58,552 nucleotides of DNA from a virus (taxonomy: Duplodnaviria; Caudoviricetes), in the IMG/VR virus record IMGVR_UViG_3300033181_000002, positions 1 through 58,552 of that record; one strand, 5' to 3'. Under the pieces are notes generated by a model that saw only the letters and a list, made by a program, of their open reading frames with translations, did not search any database and was not told the origin of the DNA. Below, in pieces: positions 1,355 through 40,818 of the stretch. Made by a program: the position numbers and the translations under genes. The number at the start of each line of letters is the position of its first letter. Position 1 is the first letter of the stretch.

Positions 1355-1358
1355 GATC

Positions 1359-1640
1359 CTACCGCCTTGTCCCACGGAGGTTCCCCAGCCGAGCATGGAA
1401 ATCGAGTCCAGCATCCTGCGGTTTAGGGTCGGTGGCGAGTCCCGATCGGCGGTCCATCCAGGCCTCGACGGCCTTGAGATCGTAATTGCCGGTGTCCGGA
1501 TCGGGCGCCGGGAAGGCGCGAAGCCGCAGCCGGGGCAGGGTGGCCTCGAACTCGGTCAGCGTCATGCCCAGCAGCCGCGCGGCTTTCACCGGCGGCACGT
1601 CCCGCGGGTCGACGCGAAACCGGACGGAGCCGCCCTGCAT
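1359..1640 (-). CDS. Excisionase-like DNA-binding protein
   Basis: Small ORF upstream of int, with AARLLGMT...FPAPDPDTGNYDLKAVEAWMD (MerR/AlpA-like winged helix). Confidence 0.7.
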   Translation of the reverse strand: MQGGSVRFRVDPRDVPPVKAARLLGMTLTEFEATLPRLRLRAFPAPDPDTGNYDLKAVEAWMDRRSGLATDPKPQDAGLDFHARLGNLRGTRR

Positions 1641-9229: not shown

Positions 9230-9347
9230 GCTGTGGTTCCCAGAACCCTGATGGCCTGAGACTATCACAGCGCCGACTCACGGGCCATCCGACCGCTTCT
9301 CGCGCCTGCTCACCGCCGGCGCACCTTGGTCGCTGCATCCGGCGCGC

Positions 9348-11084: not shown

Positions 11085-11353
11085 GCGCCCGGCGGCACGA
11101 CCGCGCGACGGCCCTGGCGCCTAGCGGCGCGGGGCCTGAGACCCGGCTCGGGGAGCTGTTGCTCGGCTTGTTGGGGCGCGCCCTCGCGCTGCTGGTCCGG
11201 CCACTGCCGTGGTTCCTGGTCCCGCGCCCCGTCCGGCACCACCGGGCCATCGCGGCTGCGTGCGGCCCCGCCGACCGCCTGCGTGCCCTGCGCATCGCCT
11301 GGGGCGAGATCCGGGCGCGCTACCGCACGAAACACATGCCGGTGCCGGCATGA
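11081..11353 (+). CDS. Hypothetical protein
   Basis: GTGA/ATGA coupling at both ends. Confidence 0.45.
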   Translation: MSARRHDRATALAPSGAGPETRLGELLLGLLGRALALLVRPLPWFLVPRPVRHHRAIAAACGPADRLRALRIAWGEIRARYRTKHMPVPA

Positions 11354-11550
11354 CGGATCTCTTCGCCCCAATGCCGCCGGCGCCTCGCTCGACCGCCTCC
11401 TCGGCGGCCCTGCGGGCCTTCGATCCGCGCCACCACCGCTGCCACTGCGGCGCGTGGGGCAGCCGCTCGCCGAACCATTTCGCCGACAGGCCCGGGCAGT
11501 GGTTCTGCCGGGCGCATTATCCGGCCGAGCCGAACGAGGGGCGGCCGTGA
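11350..11550 (+). CDS. Small Zn-finger-like protein
   Basis: CHCGAWG...WFCRAH. Confidence 0.5.
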   Translation: MTDLFAPMPPAPRSTASSAALRAFDPRHHRCHCGAWGSRSPNHFADRPGQWFCRAHYPAEPNEGRP

Positions 11551-12725
11551 ACGCCCTCGCGATGCCGCTCCTCGCATCGATGGCGGCACAGGGCGGCCTG
11601 CCCGCCTACGAGGCGATGCGCCACGCCGTGGCTCGCTGCGCCACCATCGATGAGGCGGCGGAGATCCGGGACAAGGCCGCGGCGCTGGCCGCTTATGCGC
11701 GCCTGCGCGACGACGCCGAACTCGAAGTGTGGACGCAGGAGATCAAGCTCCGGGCCTGCAGGCGCATCGGCGAACTGGTCCGCGAGCTCGACAGCTTCGA
11801 GCGCACCAGGACCGATCTGCACGACAGTGCTGTCGTGCAGAAGACGGCGGCAATCGCGGACGCGCGGCTCAACCTCAGGACCGCGCAGCGCTACCAGGAG
11901 CTCGCCGGCCCCCGCGGGGACGATCTGCAGGCGGCCGGCTCGGCGGCGGCCGAGAGCTATTTCACGGACGCCCGCGCCGCGAAGATCCCGGCCACGCAGG
12001 CGGGCCTCAAGGCCGCCGTGACCACGGCCGTGCATGACGCCATGGGCCCGACCGAGATCCGCCGCGCCGCCAAGGATCTCGCGCGGGAGACCGCCTTCAT
12101 CAAGGCGGCGCGGCGGGACGAGCGGGAGGTGCGCCTCGGCGAGGCGACGCGCGTCGCCGGCGCGCGGCTCGGGTCGCGGCTCTATGGCGTGCTCTACGCC
12201 GATCCGCCGTGGCGGCGGGACGTCTATTCGCGGCAGACCGGGTTGGATCGGGCGGCCGAGAACCACTACCCGACCATGCCGACCGAGGACATCTGCGCGC
12301 TCGCGGTGCCGGCCGCGCCGGACTGCGCGCTGTTCCTGTGGGCGACGGCCTCGAAGCTGCTCGACGCCCTGCTGGTCGTGGAGACCTGGGGCTTCGCCTA
12401 CAAGACTCAGCTGATCTGGCGGAAGCCGCACCTGGGCACGGGCTACTGGGTCCGTGACATGCACGAGATCCTGCTGATCGGCACGCGCGGCGACGTGCCG
12501 GCGCCGACGCCCGGCACGCAGTTCCCCTCGGTGGTCGAGGCCCCGCGCGGCCGGCACAGCGAGAAGCCCGACGTCGTCGCCGAGATGATCGCCCGGATGT
12601 TCCCGACCGTGCCGAAGGCCGAGCTGTTCGCCCGGGCGCCGCGTCCCGGCTGGGACGTGTGGGGCAACGAGGCCGGGGACATCGCGGCGGGCGATTTCGC
12701 GGCGGATGGGAGTGCGGCCGCATGA
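11547..12725 (+). CDS. MT-A70 family adenine methyltransferase with N-terminal phage domain
   Basis: YADPPW, HYPTM, LFLWAT, HE.LLIG.RG, HSEKP and ELFAR...GWDVWGNE. Confidence 0.9.
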   Translation: MNALAMPLLASMAAQGGLPAYEAMRHAVARCATIDEAAEIRDKAAALAAYARLRDDAELEVWTQEIKLRACRRIGELVRELDSFERTRTDLHDSAVVQKTAAIADARLNLRTAQRYQELAGPRGDDLQAAGSAAAESYFTDARAAKIPATQAGLKAAVTTAVHDAMGPTEIRRAAKDLARETAFIKAARRDEREVRLGEATRVAGARLGSRLYGVLYADPPWRRDVYSRQTGLDRAAENHYPTMPTEDICALAVPAAPDCALFLWATASKLLDALLVVETWGFAYKTQLIWRKPHLGTGYWVRDMHEILLIGTRGDVPAPTPGTQFPSVVEAPRGRHSEKPDVVAEMIARMFPTVPKAELFARAPRPGWDVWGNEAGDIAAGDFAADGSAAA

Positions 12726-20829: not shown

Positions 20830-21170
20830 CCGCTTCCGATAAGTCCCCTTCCCGGAAGGAAAGCCGGGATGAGCCCATGCCCGAGCATCCCACCAGCGCT
20901 GAGATCGAACGCTGCAAGGCTGCTATGAGCAAGCCCGGACCACTTTCGGCTCTTCAGTTGATCGCTTCCGGTCGCGCGGTGGTTGAAGTCACAGACAGGG
21001 AAGTGCTGATCGACACGTTCGACGGTCGGACGGTGCGCGACGAGGACCACCCAAATTGCAAGATGGTGCTCGCCGGCTCTTGGCCACTTCTCCGCGCCAG
21101 AATGATCGACCGCTACGGCCTGGTCACGCCCGCGGGCCATGCCGTGCTGGCGGGGGCCGCTCATGGCTAA
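20826..21170 (+). CDS. Hypothetical protein
   Basis: Coupled ORF with a dyad site at its 5' end. Confidence 0.55.
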   Translation: MTASDKSPSRKESRDEPMPEHPTSAEIERCKAAMSKPGPLSALQLIASGRAVVEVTDREVLIDTFDGRTVRDEDHPNCKMVLAGSWPLLRARMIDRYGLVTPAGHAVLAGAAHG

Positions 21171-22167
21171 GAACAGCAAGATCGAGTGGACCGACGACAC
21201 CTGGAATCCGGTCACCGGCTGTTCGGTGGTCTCGCCGGGGTGCACGAACTGCTACGCGATGCGGCTCGCCGGGACGCGGATGCGCGGCCATTCCTCGCGC
21301 GCGGGGCTGACGGTCGACAGCAAGGCCGGTCCTGTCTGGAACGGGCTGGTGCGCTTCAACGAGGGCTGGCTCGACCAGCCGCTCCGGTGTAAGCGGCCGC
21401 GCCGGATCTTCGTATGCGCCCACGGCGACCTGTTCCACGAGGGCGTGCCGGACGCATGGCTCGACCGCGTCTTCGCCGTCATGGCGCTGGCGCCGCAGCA
21501 CACCTTCCAAGTGTTGACCAAGCGCGCGGCGCGGATGCGGGCGTATTTAACCGACCCGAGCTTCGGAATTCGGGTCGGCGGTGAGTTGATGAAGTCCGCG
21601 CGTGGCAATGCTGGGGCCGAGGCGCTGGTGATCGATCTGGCCCACAGACTCACCGTCAAGCGCCAGCCCCTGCCCAACGTCTGGCTCGGCGTCTCGGCCG
21701 AGGATCAGCAGCGCGGCGACGAGCGCGTTCCGGACCTGCTGGAGACGCCGGCGGCCGTGCGCTTCGTGTCGGCCGAGCCGTTGCTCGGGCCGATCGACTT
21801 CACCAAGCTTCAGACCTTCGGTGGCGGCCAGCTCGACGCCTTGCGTGGAATGTGGGCCACCTATCCGATCGTTGAGAGGGATGGCAGGGCAGCCGTGCTG
21901 ACCAAGGCGCCGCCACGGCTCGACCAGATCATCGTCGGCGGTGAATCCGGGCCAGGTTCCCGGCCTATGCACCGGCAATGGACCTGCAGCATCCGTGACC
22001 AGTGCGCGCCCGCCGGGGTCGCGTTCTTCTTCAAGCAATGGGGTTCATGGCAGCCGGACGGCGGCCTCGATGACGGCGGCGAGCGCTTCGTCAATGTCGG
22101 CAAGGCCCGCGCCGGCCGCCTGCTCGACGGTCGCACCCATGACGCCATGCCGGGAGTCGCGGCGTGA
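21163..22167 (+). CDS. Phage Gp37/Gp68 (DUF5131) family protein
   Basis: IEWTD.TWNPVTGC..VSPGC.NCYA, LTKR, S.EPLLG, GGESG and FFFKQWG motifs. Confidence 0.9.
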   Translation: MAKNSKIEWTDDTWNPVTGCSVVSPGCTNCYAMRLAGTRMRGHSSRAGLTVDSKAGPVWNGLVRFNEGWLDQPLRCKRPRRIFVCAHGDLFHEGVPDAWLDRVFAVMALAPQHTFQVLTKRAARMRAYLTDPSFGIRVGGELMKSARGNAGAEALVIDLAHRLTVKRQPLPNVWLGVSAEDQQRGDERVPDLLETPAAVRFVSAEPLLGPIDFTKLQTFGGGQLDALRGMWATYPIVERDGRAAVLTKAPPRLDQIIVGGESGPGSRPMHRQWTCSIRDQCAPAGVAFFFKQWGSWQPDGGLDDGGERFVNVGKARAGRLLDGRTHDAMPGVAA

Positions 22168-22706: not shown

Positions 22707-23530
22707 CCAGCTACGCCGCAGCCTTCATGCTCAACGAGGGCCTTCACCGGCTCGGCAAGCCGGCGCAGAAGCACGCCACGGTGCGGACGTTCTCCGTGCC
22801 GCTGATCGAGTTCGTTCGGCCGGACGGCTACTGGCCGCAGCCGTTCACGATCGAGCAGGCGTTCGAGGTCTTCCGCTGGATGGTTACCGGGGCCGCGCTG
22901 CACTCGGAACCCAGCTATTGGGGGCGGATGGCGGCGATCGATTTGCTCTCGGCGACGTCCGGCGAGGGCCACGACCACGTCATACCGGTGCGAGGCATCC
23001 AGGACCTGCGATCGCGCTTCCACTACGGCATCCTCGGCCGACTCAGCGCCAAGTCGCAGCTCGCGTGGCGGAAGGCGCTGGGGATCGACGTGGCGGCCAC
23101 CGTGCAGATCCGAGCTCGCGTCCACAAGCCCTTCGCCGGGGCGCCTCATCTCGGTTTCCGCAGCGAGGGCCACATCCGCGAAACCATCGAACGCATCACC
23201 ACCGGATCGGTGGGTGCCACGATGGCCTGGTCGCTGAACTCGTCGCACAGAGGTTGCCGAACGCTGCATCACGTTCGGATCGCCGTGGGGGCCGAGGGCT
23301 TCGCATTCCACCTCTCCTATGGAGACCCTCTCGACACGAGCTATTCGCAGTGGACCGAAAGGATTGCGGCGACTCGTGACCGCGAGACCTTCCTCGAGAC
23401 GCTGGCCCGTGCCCGGGACGCCTTCGACATGCTGGTGCACGGCACCGGAACGAGCGACCTCGCCGACATGAGCGACTTCACGCGCCGGAGCGCCATCCCT
23501 TGCCCTCACGCTCGGAGGATCGCCGCATGA
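22703..23530 (+). CDS. Hypothetical protein
   Basis: Coupled ORF ending in RRIAA with an ATGA overlap. Confidence 0.6.
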   Translation: MTSYAAAFMLNEGLHRLGKPAQKHATVRTFSVPLIEFVRPDGYWPQPFTIEQAFEVFRWMVTGAALHSEPSYWGRMAAIDLLSATSGEGHDHVIPVRGIQDLRSRFHYGILGRLSAKSQLAWRKALGIDVAATVQIRARVHKPFAGAPHLGFRSEGHIRETIERITTGSVGATMAWSLNSSHRGCRTLHHVRIAVGAEGFAFHLSYGDPLDTSYSQWTERIAATRDRETFLETLARARDAFDMLVHGTGTSDLADMSDFTRRSAIPCPHARRIAA

Positions 23531-25500
23531 TCCGCCAGGAGATCCGGCATTTCCACGTCTGCGGCGGCTCCGGCGGCGGCAAGATGGGGTTCAACCGCGG
23601 CGAGGCGCGGGTCGGCGCCGCCACGGCCGTGCCGCGCTGCATCGGCGGGGTCGACGTGGACCTCGCCGGTATGGCCGACTTCAACCGCATCCCCGGCGCA
23701 CCGGCGACGCCGCTCGACCTGTTCACCCGCGAGCAGTTCGCGGCCTTCCACGGCGGCCTGCCGCCCGCGGGCTGGCGCGAGGCCGTGCCCGACGACTTCC
23801 GCCGCGCCGCCGGCGGCGAGCGGCCGCACGTCGTCTTCATGTCGACGCCCTGCAAGGGCTTTTCCGGCCTGCTCTCGGAAAAGCAGAGCGGCTCGACCAA
23901 ATACCAGGCGCTCAACGGCCTGACGCTGCGGGCCGTGTGGCTGACGCTCGAGGCCTGGTCCGACGACCCGCCCGAGTTCATCCTGTTCGAGAACGTGCCG
24001 CGCATCGCCACGCGTGGCCGCTGGCTGCTCGACCAGATTCGCGCGCTCCTCGACGCCTACGGCTACCTGTCGGCCGAGACCACGCACGACTGCGGCGAGA
24101 TCGGGCACCTCGCCCAATCCCGGCGGCGGTTCCTGCTGGTCGGCCGACATCCCGCCAAGGTGCCGCCGCACCTCTTCGAGCCCGAGAAGAAGCGGCTGCG
24201 CGGCGTCGGCGAGGTGCTGGACCGCCTGCCGCTCCCCGGCGACCTCTCGGTCGGCCCTCTGCATCGCATGCCGAGCCTGCAGTGGAAGACCTGGGTGCGG
24301 CTGGCCTTTGTCGAGGCGGGGTCGGACTGGCGCTCGCTGAACCGGCTCCGCGTCGAGGACGGCATGCTGGCCGACTTCGCGATCGCGCCCGACGCCGGCT
24401 GGCACAGTGGAGTGCTCGGCGTGAGGCGATGGGACGAAGCGGTCGGGACCGTTGCGGCACGTAACTCGCCCGGCAACGGCGCTTTCTCGGTCGCCGACCC
24501 GCGGCCGGGCTACGGGCACGAATATGGGCAACTCGGCGTCGGCCGCTGGGACGAGCCGGCGTCGACCGTCATCAACGTCAAGTCGCCCGGCCAGGGCAGA
24601 TTCGCGGTCGCGGACCCCCGGCCGGCCTTCGGCCGAAGCACTCACCACAACATCTACCGGATCGTGCACTGGGGCGAGCACGCCCGCACGGTGACGGGCG
24701 GCACCCATCCTGCCGGCGGAGGGAGCTGCGTGGCCGACCCCCGCACCACCGCGGGCTTCGGTGGCAAGGGCAAGTATCGCGTCACGGCCTACGGCGAGGC
24801 AGCCGGGACCGTCATCGGGGCCAGCACGACAGGGCAGGGGGCCTTCGCGGTCGCGGACCCGCGCATGACGTGGGCCGCGACCGCGCATCGCAACAAGCTC
24901 AAGGTGGTGCCCTACGCGGGTGCGGCCGGCACCGTGACGGGGGCCGACAGGGTCGGATCGGGTGCGCTGTGCGTCGCCGATCCGCGGCCCGACTTCGCCC
25001 GGGACGGCCGCGACGCCTTTCAGACGGGCGGCCATTACGGCGTGCTGCCCTACGACGCCCCGAGCGGCGCCGTCACAGGCTCGGGCCAGCACGACAACGG
25101 CCGCTGGTCCGTGGCCGATCCGCGGTCCGTGGAGGGCGGAGAGGCTGAGGCGCTGCCGGGGGCCGCGCTGCCGGCAGCCGACACGAAGCTGGTCGCGGTC
25201 ATCCGCGCGCTCGACGGAACTTGGCATCGCCCCTTCACAACCTACGAGCTGGCGGCCCTGCAGGGCTACGTCGACCCCGACGACGGCCCGCTTGTGATGG
25301 AGGGCACGTCCGACAGCGCCTGGCGCGAGCGGATCGGTAACATGGTGCCGCCGCCCTCCGCGGCCGCAATCATGTCGGTGATCGCCCGCACGCTGCTGCT
25401 CGCATGGTCGGGCGAGACCTTCGTGCTGTCGTCCGAGCCGATCTGGGTCCGCGACGTCGCGCTGGCGGCCTCGCTCGACCTGCCGCCGGTGCTGGAGTGA
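23527..25500 (+). CDS. C5-cytosine DNA methyltransferase with repeated VADPR modules
   Basis: Catalytic PC (STPCKGFS), ENVP, Q.RRRF, ELAALQG and IGN.VPP motifs. Confidence 0.9.
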   Translation: MIRQEIRHFHVCGGSGGGKMGFNRGEARVGAATAVPRCIGGVDVDLAGMADFNRIPGAPATPLDLFTREQFAAFHGGLPPAGWREAVPDDFRRAAGGERPHVVFMSTPCKGFSGLLSEKQSGSTKYQALNGLTLRAVWLTLEAWSDDPPEFILFENVPRIATRGRWLLDQIRALLDAYGYLSAETTHDCGEIGHLAQSRRRFLLVGRHPAKVPPHLFEPEKKRLRGVGEVLDRLPLPGDLSVGPLHRMPSLQWKTWVRLAFVEAGSDWRSLNRLRVEDGMLADFAIAPDAGWHSGVLGVRRWDEAVGTVAARNSPGNGAFSVADPRPGYGHEYGQLGVGRWDEPASTVINVKSPGQGRFAVADPRPAFGRSTHHNIYRIVHWGEHARTVTGGTHPAGGGSCVADPRTTAGFGGKGKYRVTAYGEAAGTVIGASTTGQGAFAVADPRMTWAATAHRNKLKVVPYAGAAGTVTGADRVGSGALCVADPRPDFARDGRDAFQTGGHYGVLPYDAPSGAVTGSGQHDNGRWSVADPRSVEGGEAEALPGAALPAADTKLVAVIRALDGTWHRPFTTYELAALQGYVDPDDGPLVMEGTSDSAWRERIGNMVPPPSAAAIMSVIARTLLLAWSGETFVLSSEPIWVRDVALAASLDLPPVLE

Positions 25501-29501: not shown

Positions 29502-29846
29502 ATGGCTATCCAGGCCAATAGCACAAGCTTGTCTCGCGGCCATCGGCCGTCGTTCGTCTACACGGCAGCGGAGAGTGAGAGGATCGCGCGCGATCTTGCA
29601 CTGGATCGCCGCTACGGCCCGATCGAAGCGGCTTTCGCGGCAGCCCAGTACCTCTATCCGGACCCGGCTTTTTGGCTCGAACAGGCCGGCTTGGCCGGCG
29701 TCATCACCGAGCTGCATGGCGAACGCATCCATCACTTCTCCGACGCGGGCCGGACACCCGAGTTCGAGTTCCTGTATCATTGGTTGATGCGGGGGAACGG
29801 CGGAAAGCCGCTCAAGCGCCTGCTGGAAAAGCGGCGCGGCACGTGA
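29502..29846 (+). CDS. Hypothetical protein
   Basis: GGAG ribosome-binding site and ATG at 29502; divergent from the RHH gene. Confidence 0.5.
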   Translation: MAIQANSTSLSRGHRPSFVYTAAESERIARDLALDRRYGPIEAAFAAAQYLYPDPAFWLEQAGLAGVITELHGERIHHFSDAGRTPEFEFLYHWLMRGNGGKPLKRLLEKRRGT

Positions 29847-29859
29847 GAGGAATGGACCG

Positions 29860-30630
29860 ATGAGCGTTTTCGAGGAAGCCTTCCCCCAGACGGGCATCGC
29901 TACGGACAGCGGCAGGCTCGCTGTGGCGGCAGGCAACATCCTGGCCCGCACGGATCTGTCTCCCGCAAGAGCACTGGCGCGGTTCTGCGAGATCCTGCAG
30001 ACGGACCCAGGCCTGCTGCGGGCCGTGGCGGCCGACTACCTGAAACAACGCGCCGCAGAGATCGGCGGCGAGAGATCGACCGGCAGGGGCCTAGAGACCT
30101 TTGCTGTCCAAGCGGCACCTGCCCCTGCCGGTCGGCCTGTTGGAAGTGATGGGGACCATACCGCGGTTGCTTTGGCCTCAGCCGAAGTGTCTCCATCGCT
30201 TCCTCCCCAAGCAGATCGCGGGGGCCATGCATGTGATGCTCCGGCCAGACATGATGCGCTCTCGCGATTTGCCCCGGTTCACGGCGGGGAGGGCCAGGCG
30301 CCCGGTGTATCCCAGGCCATTATTGCCCCTCCCGTCGTGAAACCCAACCCGCCCCGCGGCATCGATGCGATCGCGGCGGTGCAGCACGTGGTCGCTCGGT
30401 CGGTCTTCGATACGTTCAAGGTGCGTGGGGGCCGTGCCATCGGCGACCTCGGCTGGGCCGAGGCGAAGAGTATGGCGCGCACCAACGAACGGGAAGCTCG
30501 GGTGCTGCGCTTCGTCACCGACCACGTGGCCAATGCGCGGCCCGGCGCGCTGATCCGCGACGTCGTCAAGGCCGAGGTCGTCGAGGCGGCGATCCGCTTC
30601 GCCACGGAGGCCGAGAATGCCGTCGCTTGA
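29860..30630 (+). CDS. Hypothetical protein whose central linker is encoded by the TIGR-like array
   Basis: Open frame through the array; globular-looking N- and C-termini; overlaps the start of the Tas-like gene. Confidence 0.7.
   Translation: MSVFEEAFPQTGIATDSGRLAVAAGNILARTDLSPARALARFCEILQTDPGLLRAVAADYLKQRAAEIGGERSTGRGLETFAVQAAPAPAGRPVGSDGDHTAVALASAEVSPSLPPQADRGGHACDAPARHDALSRFAPVHGGEGQAPGVSQAIIAPPVVKPNPPRGIDAIAAVQHVVARSVFDTFKVRGGRAIGDLGWAEAKSMARTNEREARVLRFVTDHVANARPGALIRDVVKAEVVEAAIRFATEAENAVA
30077..30340 (+). ncRNA. TIGR-like stem-loop guide-RNA array (4 units)
   Basis: Units 30077-30134, 30142-30203, 30211-30272 and 30279-30340, each: 13-15 bp stem, CC(A/T), 9 nt, TG, 4-6 nt loop, CC(A/T), 9 nt, (T/C)G, stem. 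Confidence 0.85.
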
Positions 30631-31426
30631 GCAGCAGTGCTCGGCGCTGGCCGAGCTGCAGGTGCGCCGCAAGTTCTGCATCAAGGCGGTAACCAAGCAG
30701 AGCAATGCGGCCGGTGCGCTGGTGCGGCGCGCCCTCGGGGTCAAGTTCGACGCCGAGGAGGCCGAACGCGAGAAGGGCAACGCGCGGGCGGGGCGGATCG
30801 TGGCGGCGAGCATCGCCGGCACGCCGCAGCGGGAGGAGGACCTGGAAGTCGCTGCCGCCGTGGCATTCGACCTCGTCGTCGTGGCCCAGGGCATCGGACC
30901 CTATGAGCGCGCCCGGCACCAGTTCGAGCTTGAGATGCGCAGGGTGGCCCGAACGCTTCCTGCAGCGGTCTGGGCGGATGGCGTCCGCGGTCTGGGGGAG
31001 CTCGCCATGGCCGTGATCGTGGGCGAGGCCGGCGACCTTGCCCGCTACGGCGCCGAGGGCAAGCTGTGGAAGCGCCTCGGCCTGGCACCCTATGGCGGCA
31101 AGGCCGCGTCGACGTGGCGTCGCGAGGGCGGCCTGAAGGCGGAGGACTGGACGGCGCTGGGCTATGCACCGCGCCGCCGCGCCGAGATCTACGCCTGCGT
31201 CGGCGACCCGCTGTTCCGCGCCCAATCGGCCGCCAGAGACGGCAGCCGCGCGGCGGGGCGCTACCGTGTCGCTTACGACGCCCGGCGGGCTCGAACCGCC
31301 GAGACGCACCCCGATTGGAGCAAGGCGCACAGCCACGGCGACGGGCTGCGCATCATGACGAAGCTTTTGGTTTCGGACCTGTGGTCCGAATGGCGTCGGG
31401 CCAGCGATGCGCTGTCGCCCATATAA
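30617..31426 (+). CDS. TasA-like Nop/IS110-related RNA-binding protein with no nuclease domain
   Basis: Coiled N-terminus, then VRGLGELAMAVIVGEAGDLARY....KLWKRLGLAP (IS110 Transposase_20/Nop-like) and C-terminal H.H..GLR.MTK.LV.DLW..WR. No RuvC DEDD or HNH motif; flanked by guide-like units. Confidence 0.8.
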   Translation: MPSLEQQCSALAELQVRRKFCIKAVTKQSNAAGALVRRALGVKFDAEEAEREKGNARAGRIVAASIAGTPQREEDLEVAAAVAFDLVVVAQGIGPYERARHQFELEMRRVARTLPAAVWADGVRGLGELAMAVIVGEAGDLARYGAEGKLWKRLGLAPYGGKAASTWRREGGLKAEDWTALGYAPRRRAEIYACVGDPLFRAQSAARDGSRAAGRYRVAYDARRARTAETHPDWSKAHSHGDGLRIMTKLLVSDLWSEWRRASDALSPI

Positions 31427-31441
31427 AGGTTGCCCGACGCC
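31392..31441 (+). ncRNA. Fifth TIGR-like stem-loop unit overlapping the Tas-like stop codon
   Basis: GGCGTCGGG-CCA-GCGATGCGC-TG-TCGC-CCA-TATAAAGGT-TG-CCCGACGCC. Confidence 0.85.
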
Positions 31442-31537
31442 GCCTTTTCCCCGATCGAGGACGCCCCTGGCCGGGCGCAAAGCGCCGCTTGACCGCGCAC
31501 CGAGATCGGAGCATAAAAGCCCATCGTACAGATTTGT

Positions 31538-31570
31538 GCCCGGAGCCGGAAACGGTGGTCCGGGCTTTTT
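31538..31570 (+). terminator. Putative intrinsic terminator
   Basis: GCCCGGA...TCCGGGC hairpin followed by TTTTT. Confidence 0.55.
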
Positions 31571-31590
31571 CGTCTCTTGAGGGTCGCGAT

Positions 31591-31839
31591 GTGAGCCCTG
31601 CCGACGAGATCCGGACAGAGATCCGGGCGATCCGCCGCCTCGTCCAGCAGATCAGGCCACTGAGTCGGACCGAGCCCCACGCCTTCGTCGAAGACAAGGA
31701 TGCCGTCGAGAGACGGCTCGATCGGCTCGAGACCCGCTTCAGCGTTCGCTTCAGCGGTACGCCGACGCGCTTTCCGACCGGTACCATCCGGGGCCCGACC
31801 GGCCGCCGCGTCCAGGTCGAACTCCGCCGCGCGGGTTGA
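31591..31839 (+). CDS. Small hypothetical protein
   Basis: GAGG ribosome-binding site and GTG start; helical 82-aa ORF. Confidence 0.5.
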   Translation: MSPADEIRTEIRAIRRLVQQIRPLSRTEPHAFVEDKDAVERRLDRLETRFSVRFSGTPTRFPTGTIRGPTGRRVQVELRRAG

Positions 31840-32311: not shown

Positions 32312-33226
32312 TTGACGGATGTACTCAAGTCAGCGGTCGATTATGCCAGGGCGGAGACGTCCGAGGCCACCCGCCGCGCCTACGCCAGCGACTGGCGGGC
32401 CTTCGAGGCCTGGTGCGCCTCGGTGGCGCAGCAACCGCTGCCGGCCTCCACGGCCGCCGTGGCGGGCTACCTGGCCCATTTGGCCGACAGCGGCCTCAAG
32501 GCATCGACCATCAACCGCCGTGCCTCCGCCATCACCTACCGGCACCGTCTGGCCAACCTGACGCCGCCGACCGGCGCCGAGAGCGTCAAGGCCGTGCAGC
32601 GCGGCATCCGCCGCACCATCGGCACCCGAGTCGACCGCAAGGCGCCCGCGACCGCCAAGGCCATCAAGGCCATGGTGGCGGCCATCCCCGACACGCTGGG
32701 CGGCCGGCGCGACCGCGCGCTGCTGCTGATCGGCTTCGCGGCCGCGCTGCGGCGCTCCGAGCTCGTGGCGCTCGACGTCGAGGACCTCGAGCGCACGCCG
32801 GACGGCCTCTTCGTCCACATCCGGCGCTCGAAGACCGACCAGGAGGGCGCCGGCCACGTCGTGGCGGTGCCGCGCGGCGGCAGGCTGCGGCCGGTCCACG
32901 CCGTCGAGGACTGGCTCGAGGCCGCCGGCATGACGACCGGCGCATTGTTCCGATCGATCGCCAAGGGCGGGGTGCTGATCGGCGAGCGGCTGAGCGACCG
33001 CTCCGTCGCCGACATCGTCAAGCGCTGGGCCGCCGCCGCGAAGCTCGATCCGACGCTGTTCGCGGGGCACTCGCTGCGGGCGGGCTTCGTGACCTCGGCG
33101 CTCGAGGCCGGCGCCGACCCGCTGAAGGTGATGGACGTCACCCGGCACAGTCAGGTGCAGACCCTCAAGGGCTACGACCGCCGCGCCAAGGCCTTCAAGG
33201 ACCACGCCGGCAAGGGATTCCTGTGA
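32312..33226 (+). CDS. Second tyrosine recombinase (Cre/XerC/TnpS-like); natural start may be ATG 32272, which is out of frame
   Basis: N-terminal T.RAY..DW..F..WC; RDRALLL.GF..ALRRSEL, RSKTDQ.G.G, GHSLRAGFVT, TRH and catalytic Tyr (LKGY). Confidence 0.92.
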   Translation: MTDVLKSAVDYARAETSEATRRAYASDWRAFEAWCASVAQQPLPASTAAVAGYLAHLADSGLKASTINRRASAITYRHRLANLTPPTGAESVKAVQRGIRRTIGTRVDRKAPATAKAIKAMVAAIPDTLGGRRDRALLLIGFAAALRRSELVALDVEDLERTPDGLFVHIRRSKTDQEGAGHVVAVPRGGRLRPVHAVEDWLEAAGMTTGALFRSIAKGGVLIGERLSDRSVADIVKRWAAAAKLDPTLFAGHSLRAGFVTSALEAGADPLKVMDVTRHSQVQTLKGYDRRAKAFKDHAGKGFL

Positions 33227-34506: not shown

Positions 34507-35289
34507 GTGCCTCTACCTGCACGCGTTACTGCGCCGGCTCCGCCGGTATCGCGGCCCGGCGACGTCTGGACGCTGGGTCGCCACAGGCTCGTCTGCGGCG
34601 ACTCGCGGGATGCCGCCATCGCGGCGCTGGCGCTCCGAGGCTCGGCGCCCAACCTGATGGTGACCGACCCTCCCTACGGCGTGAGTTACGACCCGGAATG
34701 GCGGGCCCGGGCGGCACGGGCGGGCCTGCTCGGCAACAGGATCGGCGCCGGTGCCATCGGCAAGGTCGCCAACGACGACCGGGCCGACTGGCGCGACGCC
34801 TGGGCCCACTATCTGGGCGACGTCGCCTATGTGTGGCACGGCGCGCTCCACGGCTGCATCGTGCGGACGAGCCTCGAGGCGACAGGCTTCCTTATCCGCT
34901 CGCAGATCATCTGGGACAAGGGTCGGCTGATCATCAGCCGCGGCCACTACCACTGGCGTCACGAGCCCTGCTGGTACGCGGTCCGCCGCGGCCGCACCGC
35001 GCATTGGGCCGGGGACCGCAAGCAGATGACGGTGTGGCAGGTGCCGCACCGCCGCAGCGAGACCGGCCACAGCACGCAGAAGCCCGTGGAGGTGATGCTT
35101 AGGCCGATGCTGAACCATACGCGGCCAGGCGACGCCGTCTACGACCCCTTCGTGGGCTCGGGCACGACGATCATCGCGGCCGAGAGCATCGGGCGTGTCG
35201 TACACGCCATCGAGATCGACCCCGTCTACGTCGACGTCGCGGTCCGCCGCTGGGAGCAGCTGACCGGCCGCACAGCCGAGAAAGCTTGA
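34507..35289 (+). CDS. N4/N6 DNA methyltransferase (phage modification methylase)
   Basis: GDVW.LG.HRL.CGD, TDPPYGV, H.TQKPV and DPF.GSGTT motifs. Confidence 0.9.
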   Translation: MPLPARVTAPAPPVSRPGDVWTLGRHRLVCGDSRDAAIAALALRGSAPNLMVTDPPYGVSYDPEWRARAARAGLLGNRIGAGAIGKVANDDRADWRDAWAHYLGDVAYVWHGALHGCIVRTSLEATGFLIRSQIIWDKGRLIISRGHYHWRHEPCWYAVRRGRTAHWAGDRKQMTVWQVPHRRSETGHSTQKPVEVMLRPMLNHTRPGDAVYDPFVGSGTTIIAAESIGRVVHAIEIDPVYVDVAVRRWEQLTGRTAEKA

Positions 35290-36413: not shown

Positions 36414-36989
36414 GTGGCGACGGGGATCTCCGGACGGCAACTCGCCAAGGAGCTTGGGCTGTCCGAGGCCGCGGTCCGCAAAGCGGCCAGGGCAGGGCGC
36501 ATCAAGCCCCTCGCGGATGGCTCCTTCGATGCCGATGCCTGCCGCCAAGCCTGGGGCAAAGCCACCGATCCGGCGCGCACTAAGGTTCGCGAACCTGCGC
36601 ACCAAGGTACGCGCACCCCGGTGCGCACCGCGGAGGAAGCCGAGGCCGCCGTCGCGCTGATCGCGCGGGTGCTGACAGCCGAGGGAATCACTTACTCGGG
36701 CGAGGTCGACTACAACGCGGCCCGCACGGCCGACACGATCCTCAAGGCCTACGAGCGCGACCTGAAGATCGCGCAGCGCCGCAGGGAGCTGGTTCCGATC
36801 GCCAGCGTCAAGGAACACGTCGGGCGAAGCTTCATCGGCCTGCGCCAGGCCATCCAGAGGATTCCGAGCCGCCACGTGCCGGCGATCGCCGCGGAGCTAG
36901 GCTGCGACCCCGCGGCCCTCGACGCGGCCCTGACGAAAGCGATCGCGATCGAACTCGATGCTCTGTCAGCTCCGGTGGTCAGAGCCTGA
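36414..36989 (+). CDS. Terminase small subunit
   Basis: N-terminal HTH (S.RQLAK.LGLS..AVRKA...GRI) and a coiled C-terminus; overlaps the large subunit. Confidence 0.8.
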   Translation: MATGISGRQLAKELGLSEAAVRKAARAGRIKPLADGSFDADACRQAWGKATDPARTKVREPAHQGTRTPVRTAEEAEAAVALIARVLTAEGITYSGEVDYNAARTADTILKAYERDLKIAQRRRELVPIASVKEHVGRSFIGLRQAIQRIPSRHVPAIAAELGCDPAALDAALTKAIAIELDALSAPVVRA

Positions 36990-38904
36990 CACCGCCTACG
37001 CCGGCGCCGACGACGTCGAGGCCGCGCTCCGCGACGCCGTTCGTCCCGACCCGATCCTGACGGTCTCGGAGTGGGCCGACCGCTACCGGATCCTGTCGAC
37101 GAAGCTCGCGGCCGAGGCCGGCCGGTACCGCACGGCCCGCACGCCGTTCCTGCGCGACGTCATGGACGCGCTGTCGCCGACCCATGCGGCCCGGCGGGTC
37201 GTGTTCATGAAGGCGGCCCAGGTCGGGGCCACCGAGGCCGGCAACAACTGGCTCGGCTTCATCATCCATTGGTCGCCAGCGCCTGTCATGGCGGTCTGGC
37301 CGACGGTGGACACCGCGAAAAAGGTCAGCCAGCAGCGTATCGGGCCGCTGATCGAGGACAGCCCCGAGCTTGCGGCGCTGATCGCACCATCGAAGCAGAA
37401 GGACTCCGGCAACACCGTCCTGGCCAAGAGCTTTCCGGGCGGCATCCTGGTGATGACGGGCGCCAACTCCGGCGTCGGGCTCAGGTCCATGCCGGCCCGC
37501 TACGCCTTCCTCGACGAGATCGACGCCTATCCGGGGGACGTCGACGGCGAGGGCGATCCGATCGCGCTGGTGGCCAACCGCACGACGACCTTCGGCCGCT
37601 CGGCCAAGATGTTCCTGGTGTCGACCCCCACGGAGCACGGCGAGAGCCGCATCGAACGCGAGTTCGAGGCCTCCGACCAGCGCCGCTATTTCGTGCCGTG
37701 CCCGCATTGCGGGGCCGAGCAGTGGCTTAGGTTCGAGCGGCTGAAGTGGGAACCGGGCCGGCCCGAGACCGCCGCCTACATCTGCGAGGCCGAGGGCTGC
37801 GAACAGCCGATCTCCGAGCGGCACAAGACCGCCATGCTGGCGGCCGGTCGCTGGCAGCCCACGGCGGAGCCCAAGGACCCGGGCGCCGTCGGGTTCCACA
37901 TTTCGGCGCTCTACTCGCCGCTCGGCTGGCTGTCCTGGGAGGACCTGGCCCGCGAATACGAGGCCGCGGCGGGCGACAATGCCAAGCTGAAGACCTTCAA
38001 GAACACGCGCCTCGGCGAGACCTGGTTCGAGCAGGGCGACCAGCTCGATTGGGAGCGCATCTACGCCCGCCGCGAGTCCTGGCGGCCCGGCACGGTGCCG
38101 CGCGGCGCCAGCTTGCTGATGGCCGCGGTCGACGTCCAGGCGAGCCCAGCCCGACTCGAGCTGCACGTCTGGGGTTTCGGCGAGGCGCTTGAGAGCTGGG
38201 CGATCGACCGTCGTACCTTCCCGGGCGCGGCCGACGATCCCGCCACCTGGCGCGGCGTCGAAGAGGCCCTCGACGACACCTGGACCCACGCGTCCGGCGC
38301 CGAGCTGAGGATCGACCTGCTCGCCGTCGACACCGGCGACCAGACGACCGCGGTCTACAGCTGGATCGCCAAGCAGGACCAGGCCCGCGTGCTCGCCATC
38401 AAGGGCAAGCGCGGCTTCGAGATCAACGCCCCGGTGGGGACGCCCACCTACATCGCGCTCGGTAACCGTCGCAAGGCCATCGCGCTCCGCACCGTCACGG
38501 GCGACGTGTTCAAGGCCGAACTCTACCGCTTCCTGGCGCTGCCCCGGCCGACCGACGAGGAGGTCGCGGGATCGGGCTATCCGCCCGGTACCGTCCACAT
38601 CCCGGACCATCTCGACGCCGAATGGTGCCGGCAGCTCGTCGCCGAGCGTCGCGTCCGCCTGAAATCCGGGCGGTTCGAGTGGCGCAAGGAGCACCTGCGT
38701 AACGAGGCCCTCGACTGCCGGGTCTACGCCCGCGCGGCGCTGTGGACCTTGGGCGTCGCGGCCTGGAAGCCGACGAAGTGGCGCAATCTGCGTGATCGCC
38801 GCGGCCTCGACCACGTACCGGTCGAATCCGCCCCTGTGCCCCCAAGGCCTCCGCCAGTGCGGGCACCCGCCCGCCGGGTGGTACGTTCCAACTACATGAG
38901 ATGA
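36958..38904 (+). CDS. Terminase large subunit (lambda GpA family)
   Basis: LTVSEWAD, KAAQVGATE, LDEID, STPT, VPCPHCG and RNEALDCRVY motifs. Confidence 0.96.
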   Translation: MLCQLRWSEPDTAYAGADDVEAALRDAVRPDPILTVSEWADRYRILSTKLAAEAGRYRTARTPFLRDVMDALSPTHAARRVVFMKAAQVGATEAGNNWLGFIIHWSPAPVMAVWPTVDTAKKVSQQRIGPLIEDSPELAALIAPSKQKDSGNTVLAKSFPGGILVMTGANSGVGLRSMPARYAFLDEIDAYPGDVDGEGDPIALVANRTTTFGRSAKMFLVSTPTEHGESRIEREFEASDQRRYFVPCPHCGAEQWLRFERLKWEPGRPETAAYICEAEGCEQPISERHKTAMLAAGRWQPTAEPKDPGAVGFHISALYSPLGWLSWEDLAREYEAAAGDNAKLKTFKNTRLGETWFEQGDQLDWERIYARRESWRPGTVPRGASLLMAAVDVQASPARLELHVWGFGEALESWAIDRRTFPGAADDPATWRGVEEALDDTWTHASGAELRIDLLAVDTGDQTTAVYSWIAKQDQARVLAIKGKRGFEINAPVGTPTYIALGNRRKAIALRTVTGDVFKAELYRFLALPRPTDEEVAGSGYPPGTVHIPDHLDAEWCRQLVAERRVRLKSGRFEWRKEHLRNEALDCRVYARAALWTLGVAAWKPTKWRNLRDRRGLDHVPVESAPVPPRPPPVRAPARRVVRSNYMR

Positions 38905-39144: not shown

Positions 39145-40818
39145 GTGGGCTTCTGGTCCGGCCTCCTGGGTGCGGCCCCGGCCCCGGTTCGCCGCAAAGC
39201 CACGGCCCTGTTCGGCCGGGGCTACAACGCCTCGCAGCTCGGCCGCCGCCTGCGCGGCTGGGATGCCGAGCGACGCACCATCAATGCGCTGCTCGCGGCT
39301 GGTGGCGAGCAACTGCGCGCCCGGTCCCGGCAACTCTGCCGCGAGAACCCCTACGCCAGTAGTGCCTGCGAATCCTTCACGGCCGCCGGGGTCGGCTCGG
39401 GGATCAAGCCGTCGTCGCTGCACGGCGACGCCGACACGCAGGTCGCCATCCAGGACACCTGGCTGCGCTGGACCGACGAAGCCGACGCCGATGGGCTGAC
39501 CGATTTCTATGGGCTGCAGGCGCTCGCCACGCGCGGCATGTTCGAAGCCGGGGAAGTCTTCGTCCGGTTCCGCCCGCGCCGTCCCTCGGACGGCCTGTCG
39601 GTCCCGCTGCAGCTTCAGCTCCTCGAAAGCGAGATGCTGAGCTTCACCTACAACGGGGTCTGCGACACCACCGGCAACATCATTCGCGAGGGCATCGAGT
39701 TCGACCCTATCGGCCGGCGGGTCGCCTACCACTTCTACAAGTCACACCCGGGCGAAATCTATCCGGTCATCTTCGATTTCAGCTACAACCGGGTGCCGGC
39801 CTCGGAGGTGCTGCACCTCTACAAGCCGCTTCGGCCCGGCCAGATCCGCGGGCAGCCGCAGATCACGCCGTCGATGGTACGGCTTTACCTGCTTGACCTC
39901 TACGACGACGCCGAACTGGACCGCAAGAAGGTCGCGGCGATGTTCGCCGGCTTCGTCACCAAGAAGTCGCCGACGTCGGACACCCCCTTGGAGCTGCGGG
40001 CCGGCGAGGGCGCACTCTCCGAGCCGGTGCCGCCGGGATCCGCCATCGCGCCCCTTGAGCCCGGCATGATCCAGGTGCTCGAGGAAGGCGAGGACATCAC
40101 CTTCTCCAATCCCACGGAGGTCGGCGGTTCCTACGAGGCCTTCCAGTGGCGCAACCTGCTGGCCATCGCGGCTGGCTGCGGCGTGCCGTATTTCGACGTG
40201 ACGTCGGACACGAGCCAGTCCAATTATTCGTCGAGCCGCGAGGCGCAGGTCGCCTATCGGCGCCGCATGGACCAGTTCCAGCACCAGACGCTGGTGTTCC
40301 AGCTCTGCCGCCCGGTGTGGCAGCGATGGTTCGCGGTCGCGACCCTCACAAAAGCCATCCCGATCGCGGCGCGCGACCTCGCGGCCAAGCCTGCCGAGAC
40401 CACGAAGGTCAAGTGGATCCCTCCGAAATGGGAATGGGTGGATCCCTTCAAGGACCGCAAGGCCGCGCAGATCGCTGTCCAGGAAGGGTGGATCTCCCGT
40501 TCCGACGTCATCGAGGCGGAGGGCGAGGAGCCGATCCAGAACGACAAGCGCATCCAAGCCGACCGTCAGCGCGAACTCGCCATGGACCTCGGTTTCCGCC
40601 CGGCGACGATCCGCGAAAACGTCAACATCGCGGCCAGCGCCGACAGCCCCGACGCCGCCGTCAAGGCCGCTACCAGCGCGGGCGACGCCGCCAGCGGCGA
40701 AGACGGCAGCGCACCGGCGGCCGGCGATCCACTCACGGACGATTCGAAGAGCACCAAGTCCGGCGCTGCGCGCTCCGGCGGCGCCAAGGCGCGGGCCCGC
40801 GCCCTCCGCGCGGCCTGA
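39145..40818 (+). CDS. Portal protein (lambda family)
   Basis: LRARSRQL.RENPYA, RPGQIRG.P, NYSSSR and WVDP.KD motifs. Confidence 0.95.
   Translation: MGFWSGLLGAAPAPVRRKATALFGRGYNASQLGRRLRGWDAERRTINALLAAGGEQLRARSRQLCRENPYASSACESFTAAGVGSGIKPSSLHGDADTQVAIQDTWLRWTDEADADGLTDFYGLQALATRGMFEAGEVFVRFRPRRPSDGLSVPLQLQLLESEMLSFTYNGVCDTTGNIIREGIEFDPIGRRVAYHFYKSHPGEIYPVIFDFSYNRVPASEVLHLYKPLRPGQIRGQPQITPSMVRLYLLDLYDDAELDRKKVAAMFAGFVTKKSPTSDTPLELRAGEGALSEPVPPGSAIAPLEPGMIQVLEEGEDITFSNPTEVGGSYEAFQWRNLLAIAAGCGVPYFDVTSDTSQSNYSSSREAQVAYRRRMDQFQHQTLVFQLCRPVWQRWFAVATLTKAIPIAARDLAAKPAETTKVKWIPPKWEWVDPFKDRKAAQIAVQEGWISRSDVIEAEGEEPIQNDKRIQADRQRELAMDLGFRPATIRENVNIAASADSPDAAVKAATSAGDAASGEDGSAPAAGDPLTDDSKSTKSGAARSGGAKARARALRAA

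Follow-up and report, generated by a model that had tools for sequence, protein, structure and literature searches.

A probable stem-loop TIGR-TasA system in a temperate phage, with guide units inside a conserved companion gene

The middle of a 58,552-nucleotide phage sequence (Caudoviricetes; IMG/VR record IMGVR_UViG_3300033181_000002; the whole stretch is referred to below as the window) carries five hairpins with paired 9-nt segments close to a gene for a 269-residue protein. This raises the question of whether hairpins and protein form an RNA-guided system and, if so, of which kind. In a preliminary description, made from the letters of the DNA, the locus was read as TIGR-Tas-like and the protein as being of the TasA type. 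In the stem-loop arrays that accompany TasA, two spacers of 8 to 12 nt with boxes flanking them lie between variable palindromes, and the boxes of the tigRNA are CCA (box C) and UG (box D) (Faure et al. 2025, PMC12045711). TasA with stem-loop guides has been reported to bind DNA and repress transcription (Xu et al., preprint, 10.64898/2026.09.09.750476), and PlTasA has been solved as a dimer in which both heteroduplexes are present (Guan et al., preprint, 10.64898/2026.08.11.744272). The analysis described here shows that the locus is very likely a stem-loop TIGR-TasA system of a temperate phage of a high-GC bacterium, the host probably being an alphaproteobacterium. The proposed TasA-type reading is supported by the geometry of the guide units, by profile and fold matches to TasR and TasH, by the strand-specific recurrence of the units in related loci, and by the variation of their spacers.

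All five units were found on the + strand where the preliminary description had placed them, with spacer pairs identical to its listing letter for letter (Table 1). Each is built from a stem arm, CCA or CCT, 9 nt, TG, a loop within the range of 4-6 nt (in fact 4 or 6 nt), CCA or CCT, 9 nt, TG or CG, and the second stem arm. Box C is CCA in 8 of the 10 cases and box D is TG in 9 of 10, with CG as the second box D of unit 3 alone. With no more than one mismatch, 16, 14, 14, 15, and 10 flank positions are paired in units 1 to 5, respectively. The earlier observation that the stems vary in sequence and always pair, several of them with G:U, holds, given that 9 of the 71 stem columns read from the arms are G:U pairs, which on the opposite strand would be C-A mismatches. 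The lengths of 9 to 15 bp given at that time do not hold, the stems comprising 10 to 17 columns. Units 1-4 are spaced at periods of 66, 69, and 69 nt. Unit 5 overlaps the 3′ end of tasA, so that the conserved ...EWRRA motif is encoded by its 5′ stem arm and the tasA stop falls within spacer B.

Chance does not produce such units at this frequency. Units with at least 10 stem pairs number five in the window, against a mean of 0.02 and a maximum of 1 when the whole window was resampled 300 times under a first-order Markov model and both strands were counted. On folding, each unit outperforms its own dinucleotide shuffles, of which at most 1 in 200 was as good (z from -3.2 to -6.4), and the 311-nt array folds into four consecutive hairpins (z -5.6). 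No Rfam family, snoRNA families included, matched in 29800-31650 at E ≤ 1. Downstream of unit 5 lies a hairpin resembling an intrinsic terminator; published TIGR arrays likewise end with a terminator (PMC12045711).

Table 1. Features of the tas locus, in positions of the window
Feature	Positions	Core	Strand	Description	MFE	z
Weak sigma-70-like promoter match, candidate only	29751..29780		+	Upstream of orfU; 9/12 positions; 1 site vs 0.2 expected		
orfU	29860..30630		+	Conserved 256-aa companion; N-terminal helical domain aa 15-68, linker aa 73-165, C-terminal domain aa 168-255		
tigRNA unit 1	30073..30138	30090-30121	+	17-column stem, CCT, AGAGACCTT, TG, ctgt, CCA, AGCGGCACC, TG	-39.9	-4.67
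tigRNA unit 2	30142..30203	30156-30189	+	14-column stem, CCA, TACCGCGGT, TG, ctttgg, CCT, CAGCCGAAG, TG	-35.6	-6.42
tigRNA unit 3	30211..30272	30225-30258	+	14-column stem, CCA, TGCATGTGA, TG, ctccgg, CCA, GACATGATG, CG	-38.5	-5.26
tigRNA unit 4	30278..30341	30294-30325	+	16-column stem, CCA, GGCGCCCGG, TG, tatc, CCA, GGCCATTAT, TG	-34.8	-3.18
tasA	30617..31426		+	269 aa, nuclease-less Tas protein; coiled coil and Nop-type C-terminal RNA-binding domain		
tigRNA unit 5	31391..31442	31401-31432	+	CCA, GCGATGCGC, TG, tcgc, CCA, TATAAAGGT, TG	-28.8	-3.41
Intrinsic-terminator-like hairpin with T run	31546..31571		+	Consensus scan only; 3′ of unit 5, would close the orfU-tasA-unit 5 transcription unit		

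The product of tasA had been described as carrying an IS110 C-terminal or Nop-like motif and neither RuvC nor HNH, and this was borne out. Pfam gave a weak match to PF02371 (IS110 C-terminal; E 0.017, under the Pfam curated cutoff) and no nuclease family at E ≤ 1, with PF01548 (DEDD/RuvC) and PF01798 both absent, and the PHROG match, phrog_4285 (E 9.7e-13), bears an IS110-type "transposase" label. The AF2 model (pLDDT 95.5) consists of helices only according to DSSP, with no beta sheet and a coiled coil that begins at residue 4. The comparisons by HMM and structure that the preliminary description had called for place TasR and TasH first by both routes. A profile of the TasA family, which has 2613 representatives at E ≤ 1e-3, matched in the PDB the TasR of 9MTY, which is the RNP of Faure et al. 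2025 (PMC12045711), at E 7.3e-13 over residues 140-292 of the chain, its Nop part; TasH followed at E 0.0019, and ISCro4 had E 0.2 in the same comparison. With the model as query, all seven Foldseek matches at E ≤ 0.001 were TasR or TasH (TMq 0.56-0.60). IS621 came next (E 0.03; TMq 0.39-0.42), and a human SSU-processome chain appeared among the matches at E 0.41.

Taken together, the sequence features tested among those that define stem-loop TIGR-TasA are all present, which supports the assignment: a Nop domain with a coiled coil, two CCW-N9-YG elements in each of the five units, palindromic flanks, an array on the tas strand, and no nuclease.

Related loci display the same organization in a strand-specific manner. 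Among 26 nonduplicate loci, all 62 matches to the unit core with at least 9 stem pairs lie on the tas strand and none on the opposite one. With the window added, an energy-based scan gave one or more units in each of the 27 loci (138 units on the + strand versus 18 on the - strand). An orthologue of unit 5 is present at the 3′ end of tas in 14 other loci, with compensatory changes in the stem: over the 15 loci, stem positions 1-3 and 6 are paired in every case, using three to five pair types each. The spacers of these orthologues are 27% identical, and the conserved stem bases are the few that stand beside the boxes (GGG/CCC); published stem-loop TasA likewise conserves only a few stem bases beside the boxes (10.64898/2026.09.09.750476). 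Three of the prophages are nearly identical apart from their spacers, with 515 of 581 nonspacer columns invariant, compared with 13 of 90 spacer columns. The preliminary description had staked its reading on homologous loci keeping the CCA-N9-TG spacing while the spacers vary, and this is what they do. The prophage context that it had proposed was also confirmed. The clade occurs in prophages of cultured Alphaproteobacteria, namely, Pannonibacter tanglangensis XCT-34 (two copies) and Xanthobacter tagetidis ATCC 700314, as well as in Sinorhizobium meliloti, by source name. Variant boxes reading ACA occur in Xanthobacter.

By analogy with published homologues, such a locus would be transcribed and processed, and its RNAs would enter a dimeric RNP that binds DNA and represses. 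A single transcript would begin 5′ of orfU, include tasA, end at the terminator-like hairpin, and be cut into five hairpin tigRNAs of ~52-66 nt each. In each of them the variable stem would hold open an internal loop containing the two 9-nt spacers, with box C (CCA/CCU) on one side of each and box D (UG) on the other, and a TasA dimer would bind both box C/D pairs. Each spacer would pair over 9 bp of DNA, A with one strand and B, in the adjoining stretch, with the opposite strand. The expected site would therefore be an 18-bp sequence made of A and the reverse complement of B, a geometry suggested by two published features, the 3′ overhangs of 8 nt and the "C - 5 rule" (PMC12045711). The nuclease-less TasA would then sit on this site and block transcription or another DNA transaction.

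The search for 18-mer targets advocated in the preliminary description returned no target for the spacers of the window in the window itself, the related loci, the prophages, IMG/VR, or, for units 1, 3, and 5, the genomes sampled. Within the window, where A plus the reverse complement of B and three other arrangements were searched with gaps of 0-2, no site was found for its own pairs at up to 2 mismatches; of four matches at 3 mismatches, two are the units themselves. Regulation of the phage's own genome, which had been among the roles suggested, is not favored because of this lack of window matches at up to 2 mismatches. Cross-targeting by 139 units against the window and 31 loci was absent at up to 1 mismatch, and at 2 mismatches gave 14 matches versus 18 in a control geometry. 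For 20 units against four prophages (196 kb), the working geometry gave 0 matches at up to 2 mismatches, the control geometry 2, and shuffles 0.7-0.85. In IMG/VR, the five pairs of the window had 3, 0, 2, 2, and 0 matches, seven in total, on contigs of 42-67% GC, which is the level expected by chance. One of these matches (67% GC contig, gap 1) lies inside an ORF that looks like a phage structural gene. Searches of alphaproteobacterial genomes covered units 1, 3, and 5. The unit 3 pair had no exact match with gaps of 0-2 in 401 sampled genomes, the unit 5 pair had none at up to 1 mismatch in 101, and the unit 1 pair had 18 matches at up to 2 mismatches in 61, versus 14 in the control, none of them recurrent. 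An absence of matches is expected whenever host and rival elements have not been identified (see the discussion in Xu et al., 10.64898/2026.09.09.750476). Nor do the spacers of the clade as a whole reveal a shared target: of the same-orientation pairs that can be formed from 276 spacers, 7 differ by at most 1 mismatch, compared with 4.5 in shuffles (maximum, 11), and 2 of the 7 are overlapping calls.

A relative, in contrast to the window, provided one candidate. Of the 11 spacer pairs in Pannonibacter, one, that of unit 4 of the second prophage, agrees with the host gene for tRNA-Ser(GGA) at 18 of 18 positions in the published geometry, with a chance of ~0.004. The match lies in the variable arm of the gene, which is occupied by an 11.3-kb integrative island. 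The tRNA-Ser(GGA) gene is the sole candidate for a natural TasA target that we found.

The lack of a target for the five pairs of the window in the searches made, together with the weakness of the promoter-like site, could also mean that the locus is a genuine TIGR-TasA system by descent that is silent or defunct in the present prophage and has no current function. We consider this highly unlikely, given that both ORFs are intact with coding-type GC3 (0.86 for tasA), that none of the five stems or ten box pairs is broken, and that neither the terminator nor the overlap of start and stop has been lost.

The array differs from what the preliminary description had assumed in one respect. Position 29860 is the start not of a noncoding array but of an upstream protein gene, orfU, which contains units 1-4 and shares its last 14 nt with the start of tasA, as read from the sequence. 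Units 1-4 encode, in frame, the predicted disordered linker of OrfU. In the AF2 model, pLDDT is below 50 over residues 73-153 and ~90 in the C-terminal domain. The N- and C-terminal parts of OrfU were found in related loci by tblastn and HMM searches, with one frame common to both in 20 of 20 loci, and a word-based search for homologues returned five proteins. OrfU has no Pfam match at E ≤ 1, ParB included, and no PHROG match; its model has no Foldseek match in the PDB at E ≤ 0.001, the best VIA-align hits are helical bundles within the noise (Z 5.2), and the Atlas offered no usable match by features, its structural rows being mixed and of low TM. Its domains are absent from all 266 TasA-family proteins examined, among which no fusion was seen. 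A complex prediction for TasA with OrfU residues 160-256 scored 0.00, which weighs neither for nor against binding.

None of 10 other window proteins near the locus, including a second recombinase, recurs beside tas in 31 loci, apart from one methyltransferase match in one locus. The idea of a conserved recombinase partner for tas was dropped because of this lack of recurrence.

The position of units 1-4 within orfU, in frame and at near-regular periods, and the retention of the linker as a region among OrfU homologues raise the question of whether the units serve the protein, as a repetitive low-complexity linker, the hairpins being incidental or of use only for terminating or stabilizing the mRNA. 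This appears scarcely credible. Unit 5, which lies outside orfU, uses a different frame, and runs partly past the tasA stop, is built in the same way, and the units of relatives occur in all three phases and at several places, namely, within tas, 3′ of it, and in the intergenic stretch that separates it from orfU. Moreover, what is conserved is the nucleotide sequence and its pairing (CCA, TG, and pairs that include G:U), the 27 nt between the boxes, which would encode the peptide, are the least conserved, and the linker is predicted to be disordered. On the guide reading, units 1-4 would have a double role, as tigRNAs and as the translated linker. Because of this dual coding, maturation of the guides would cut the orfU-tasA mRNA, and changes of spacer would alter OrfU.

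The closest known counterparts are the stem-loop TasA systems PlTasA (from a Peromyscus leucopus gut contig), BlTasA, and MbTasA. By description, these proteins likewise are nuclease-less with a coiled coil and a Nop domain, their arrays likewise have spacer pairs of ~9 nt framed by CCA and UG within stems of variable sequence, and their units likewise lie upstream of, downstream of, or overlapping the tas coding sequence. The distance from box D to box C is 9 nt (UG, 4 nt, and CCA) in three of the five window units, which is the published modal loop length (10.64898/2026.09.09.750476). Three differences stand out. The CUU motif at the stem base, reported as a processing mark (Xu et al., 10.64898/2026.09.09.750476), is not enriched here: CTT occurs within -6 to +8 of the 3′ stem end in 15 of 95 clade units, where ~13% is expected, and near the 3′ stem base in two of the five window units. 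Second, a conserved gene other than tas holds four of the units within its frame; in the passages compared (PMC12045711; 10.64898/2026.09.09.750476), intragenic tigRNA units are described only within tas. Third, the hosts include cultured Alphaproteobacteria, which carry the system in prophages.

Other systems built on Nop-type proteins share some of these features. The dual-repeat TIGR-TasR and TasH systems (TaTasR 9MTY; SpTasH 9W03 and others), which supply the best profile and fold matches, have the same boxes C and D and two 9-nt spacers, whereas the window locus lacks RuvC or HNH, edge and loop repeats, and the fixed 36-nt unit, stems taking the place of the edge repeats. The tasParB-tasA operons (Faure et al. 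2025, PMC12045711) likewise have a conserved companion in an operon with tasA and guides around and between the genes; OrfU, unlike tasParB, has no ParB match, goes with stem-loop rather than dual-repeat arrays, and has guides inside its own frame. Box C/D snoRNPs (Nop5/Nop56/58) combine a Nop dimer with a bipartite, two-spacer guide, a likeness argued by Faure et al. (PMC12045711). In contrast, neither a K-turn box C/D consensus, an L7Ae or fibrillarin partner, nor PF01798 was found at the window locus, and the published target of Tas is DNA, whereas that of box C/D snoRNPs is RNA. IS110 and IS621 have a homologous Nop-like RNA-binding domain and guide loops framed by equivalent motifs (PMC12045711), and differ from TasA, which has no DEDD/RuvC domain, in using one target-plus-donor bridge RNA instead of an array of single-target guides. 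Descent by decay or domestication from such an element, with the protein as the RNA-binding half of a recombinase and the hairpins as bridge-RNA-like remnants without array function, would suit the IS110-type character of the sole Pfam and PHROG labels, the source label "IS110 family transposase" on one homologue, and the presence of IS621 and ISCro4 among the fold matches, but its probability is close to nil against an all-helical model without DEDD/RuvC and with no PF01548 match at E ≤ 1, the rank of TasR and TasH above IS621 and ISCro4 by profile and fold, five single-loop units per locus in place of one two-loop bridge RNA, a large family conserved as a 260-aa core, and hypervariable spacers between near-identical loci.

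The TIGR-Tas system has already been described (2025, with TasA as a repressor in a 2026 preprint), and the stem-loop TasA locus of the window leaves that picture unchanged. The wholesale replacement of spacers, exactly between CCA and UG, in near-identical prophages points to an active spacer-replacement process. Some guides may be aimed at conserved host loci and not at rival phages, the tRNA-Ser(GGA) gene being the one candidate. If that were true, TasA would silence a host tRNA gene, or would sit on an attachment hot spot of mobile genetic elements and control integration or excision. A joint reading, in which OrfU, guides, and TasA constitute a three-part module of alphaproteobacterial temperate phages with dual-coded guides, wholesale spacer replacement, and some targets in host loci, is tentative and on balance unlikely to hold as a whole. 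According to Xu et al. (10.64898/2026.09.09.750476), natural roles need native hosts, and most loci lie on metagenomic contigs free of context. The value of the present clade is first that it resides in prophages of cultured, tractable bacteria. The in-frame guides and the replaced spacers offer handles on how stem-loop tigRNAs are produced and how the arrays gain spacers, and the exact tRNA match of a relative supplies a first testable candidate for a natural target of TasA.

The plus strand between 29860 and 31442 carries two overlapping genes and five hairpin guide (tigRNA) units. All five cores follow one order, namely CCW, 9 nt, TG, a loop of 4 or 6 nt, CCW, 9 nt and TG (CG once), as the preliminary description had stated, and the five spacer pairs are identical to those it had listed. 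The unit flanks base-pair across 10 to 16 positions, with at most one mismatch allowed. When the window was resampled 300 times under a first-order Markov model and scanned on both strands, units with at least 10 stem pairs occurred with a mean of 0.02 and a maximum of 1, compared with the 5 observed. Every unit is more stable than its own shuffles (z of -3.2 to -6.4), and the four-unit stretch is predicted to fold as four hairpins in series (z of -5.6). G:U pairs, counted by eye from the printed arms, make up 9 of the 71 stem columns, which fits the selection on plus-strand RNA structure that had been proposed. The five-unit observation is confirmed; an Rfam search of the locus gave no family match.

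Coordinates of the guide unit cores and prophage genes in the window
Feature	Position	Strand	Remark
Unit 1 core	30090-30121	+	
Unit 2 core	30156-30189	+	
Unit 3 core	30225-30258	+	
Unit 4 core	30294-30325	+	
Unit 5 core	31401-31432	+	
tRNA-Gly	44-117		window start, beside tyrosine integrase
Tyrosine integrase	191-1414	-	
Lambda-type large terminase	36958-38904		
Lambda-type portal	39145-40818		

One further core match (9220-9253, plus strand, CCT-N9-TG-6-CCA-N9-TG) has 6 flanking pairs and is distant from tasA; it was left out of the count because chance alone would produce about 0.8 of them. When no stem is required, the whole window holds 96 core matches on both strands, against 43 ± 7 in the Markov resamples, an excess that may be an effect of codon structure.

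The 269-aa product of tasA (30617-31426) was said to carry an IS110 C-terminal/Nop-like motif and no nuclease domain, and both statements hold. PF02371 matches below threshold (E of 0.017), and a PHROG labelled "transposase" matches with an E value of 9.7e-13. A family profile built from 58 members and searched against the PDB matched the Nop part of 9MTY, the TasR-tigRNA-DNA complex of Faure et al. (PMC12045711), with an E value of 7.3e-13, and TasH with 0.0019. The AlphaFold model (pLDDT 95.5, pTM 0.90) is helical throughout, with a long coiled-coil helix from residue 4. All seven Foldseek matches with E values of at most 0.001 are TasR or TasH chains (TMq 0.56-0.60), followed by the IS621 and ISCro4 recombinases at about 0.03-0.08, so that TasR and TasH are best by both profile and fold and IS621 lies behind by fold. 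There is neither space nor signal for a RuvC or HNH domain, and the protein is therefore of the TasA type. The family comprises 2613 cluster representatives at E values of at most 1e-3 and 255 at 1e-30 or below, with named sources including Sinorhizobium meliloti, Xanthobacter tagetidis and a Bradyrhizobium MAG.

Many database homologues of TasA (P0010, P0014, P0028 and others) have long low-complexity N- or C-terminal extensions with recurring G-x-x-x-A-x-K-A-x-x-x-P-like segments. They resemble the product of gene calls reading through in-frame guide units rather than genuine protein. ARAGORN places a tRNA-Trp (CCA) within the tasA coding sequence (31275-31350, minus strand), where the Rfam tRNA model is silent at the gathering score and no Rfam family matches at an E value of at most 1; this call is probably a false positive.

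An alignment-based search found 5 related loci in bacterial genomes, including those of X. tagetidis ATCC 700314 and two in Pannonibacter tanglangensis XCT-34, and 26 in IMG/VR. After removal of duplicates (L010, L012, L015, L022 and L023), 26 loci were scanned on both strands with a loose core pattern that imposed no stem, and stems were measured afterwards. With at least 9 stem pairs, all 62 cores lay on the tas strand and none on the opposite one; with at least 7, the split was 92 to 8. A second scan, energy-based and tolerant of bulges, detected one or more units in each of the 27 loci, the window included, with 138 units on the plus and 18 on the minus strand; its loose CCN/NG boxes also yield false positives distant from tas. 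Orthologues of unit 5 are present in 14 further loci, and their 5' arm consists of the codons for the ...EWRRA motif conserved at the C terminus of Tas. Across these 15 units, stem positions 1-3 and 6 are always paired, by several pair types, and spacer identity is 27%. In three near-identical prophage loci (L002, L004 and L011), 515 of 581 non-spacer columns are invariant, against 13 of 90 spacer columns, and thus the expectation that spacing is kept while spacers vary is borne out, most clearly in these three.

Four relatives (L024, L027, L028 and L030) have an additional unit at about 3189-3238, approximately 190-240 nt into tas (start at 3001), which by its position would map near the first coiled-coil helices; the tasA of the window has no unit at that distance from its start. 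The 9-mer TGCATGCCG is both spacer A of the L008 unit at 3737 and spacer B of the L017 unit at 3758, each located at the tas 3' end. One shared 9-mer among 276 spacers is not clearly above chance.

Units 1-4 do not sit in non-coding DNA. They lie within an ORF of 256 aa (orfU, 29860-30630) and recur in a single codon phase at intervals of 66, 69 and 69 nt. The end of orfU and the beginning of tasA have 14 nt in common. Using separate HMMs for the N and C domains of OrfU in the 27 non-duplicate loci, window included, the C domain was detected in 21, and the two domains were in a common frame in all 20 loci where both were detected. Judged from these sequences, orfU is a genuine conserved gene. 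By comparison of coordinates, at least 17 of the 20 have units in the interval separating the domains; the scan gave no unit there in L007 and L008. In the AlphaFold model of OrfU, a helical N domain and a confidently modelled C domain flank a disordered stretch (residues 73-153, pLDDT below 50) that coincides with the array. No relatives of OrfU were found by family, fold or language-model searches, no OrfU-TasA fusion occurs among 266 TasA homologues, and no other neighbour of tas is conserved among the 31 related loci.

Units with variant boxes are visible by eye in the orfU of X. tagetidis ATCC 700314 (L001, 2560-2720). They have ACA for CCA, one CA for TG and loops of 12-15 nt, and were missed by the CC-based scans for these reasons. 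The box variants may co-vary with the protein.

Target sites would have spacer A first and then spacer B reverse-complemented, a geometry inferred from the 8-nt 3' overhangs and "C - 5 rule" described in PMC12045711. The preliminary description had proposed looking for such 18-mers in host and phage genomes, and this gave no site for the window's own pairs in the sets searched. The five pairs had no site in the window at up to 2 mismatches, in the related loci or in four prophages, and matches in IMG/VR were at chance level only. The bacterial search took in units 1, 3 and 5 and gave nothing above controls in sampled genomes of the Alphaproteobacteria.

A candidate emerged from the relatives. 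Eleven well-formed units of the two Pannonibacter prophages were compared with their own 4.6-Mb host genome (exact, gap 0-2). Ten had no exact match, and unit 4 of L004, located between orfU and tas with GTGTATACG and ACGGTTTCC as spacers, had a single ungapped 18/18 match at G001:C3:689524-689541. This result concerns 1 of 11 units, from a relative of the window, in the A+rc(B) geometry; an exact match to any of the 11 patterns would arise by chance in this genome with a probability of about 0.004. The site lies in the variable arm of a tRNA-Ser(GGA) gene, and a tyrosine integrase gene begins 29 nt past that tRNA. An 11.3-kb island is integrated there (G001:C3:689483-700892; L067, L068-L069), with the integrase at the tRNA side; it is delimited by a direct repeat of 16 nt from the tRNA 3' end, found again 11.3 kb onward, and the 18-bp site lies 16 nt upstream of that repeat. 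Three other genomes of the family lack this integrase beside the corresponding tRNA gene. The 18-mer occurs exactly in 17 of 41 sampled genomes of the family and with at most 1 mismatch in 6 more, while its reversed control has 5 matches in 4 of these genomes; the four sites inspected all fall in tRNA-Ser(GGA). On this sequence evidence, we regard the match as a lead with roughly even odds of being a true target.

The window has 58,552 bases and 69% G+C. The tRNA-Gly with its adjoining tyrosine integrase, together with the lambda-type large terminase and portal, identify it as a prophage, as had been claimed. A second tyrosine recombinase (32312-33226, Phage_integrase E of 7e-17) lies 0.9 kb downstream of the TIGR-Tas module and is not conserved beside tas among the 31 related loci. 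The prophage also codes for three DNA methyltransferase-like proteins (MT-A70, C-5 cytosine and phrog_498 N-methylase; 11283-12725, 23500-25500 and 34507-35289) and a DUF5131 protein (21139-22167).

Faure et al. describe a "box C" of CCA and a "box D" of UG, stem-loop arrays with two box-flanked spacers of 8-12 nt between variable palindromes, and one such array with TasA that is expressed and processed (PMC12045711). No sequence feature of the window units departs from this published definition. In their catalogue of 2,559 stem-loop arrays, Xu et al. (bioRxiv 10.64898/2026.09.09.750476) place units upstream of, downstream of or within the tas coding sequence, and they report guide-dependent transcriptional repression by TasA. 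With D and C boxes counted as in their legend, 3 of the 5 window loops have the modal 9 nt. In the window's clade, 15 of 95 units have the CUU mark that they describe at stem bases, which is no enrichment over the roughly 13% expected. A structure of PlTasA with a stem-loop guide on DNA comes from Guan et al. (bioRxiv 10.64898/2026.08.11.744272). The stem-loop TIGR-TasA interpretation of the locus is supported and, since this kind of system is already described, its newness is modest. By analogy with homologues, the locus would be expressed and processed, bind its target and have a role in the phage life cycle.

The intragenic tigRNAs that the text of Xu et al. describes all lie within tas, and guides in a gene other than tas may already be catalogued. 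Three features of this family are worth following: the guides carried in frame inside the conserved companion gene orfU, the wholesale replacement of spacers in otherwise nearly identical prophages of cultured hosts, and the candidate target in tRNA-Ser.
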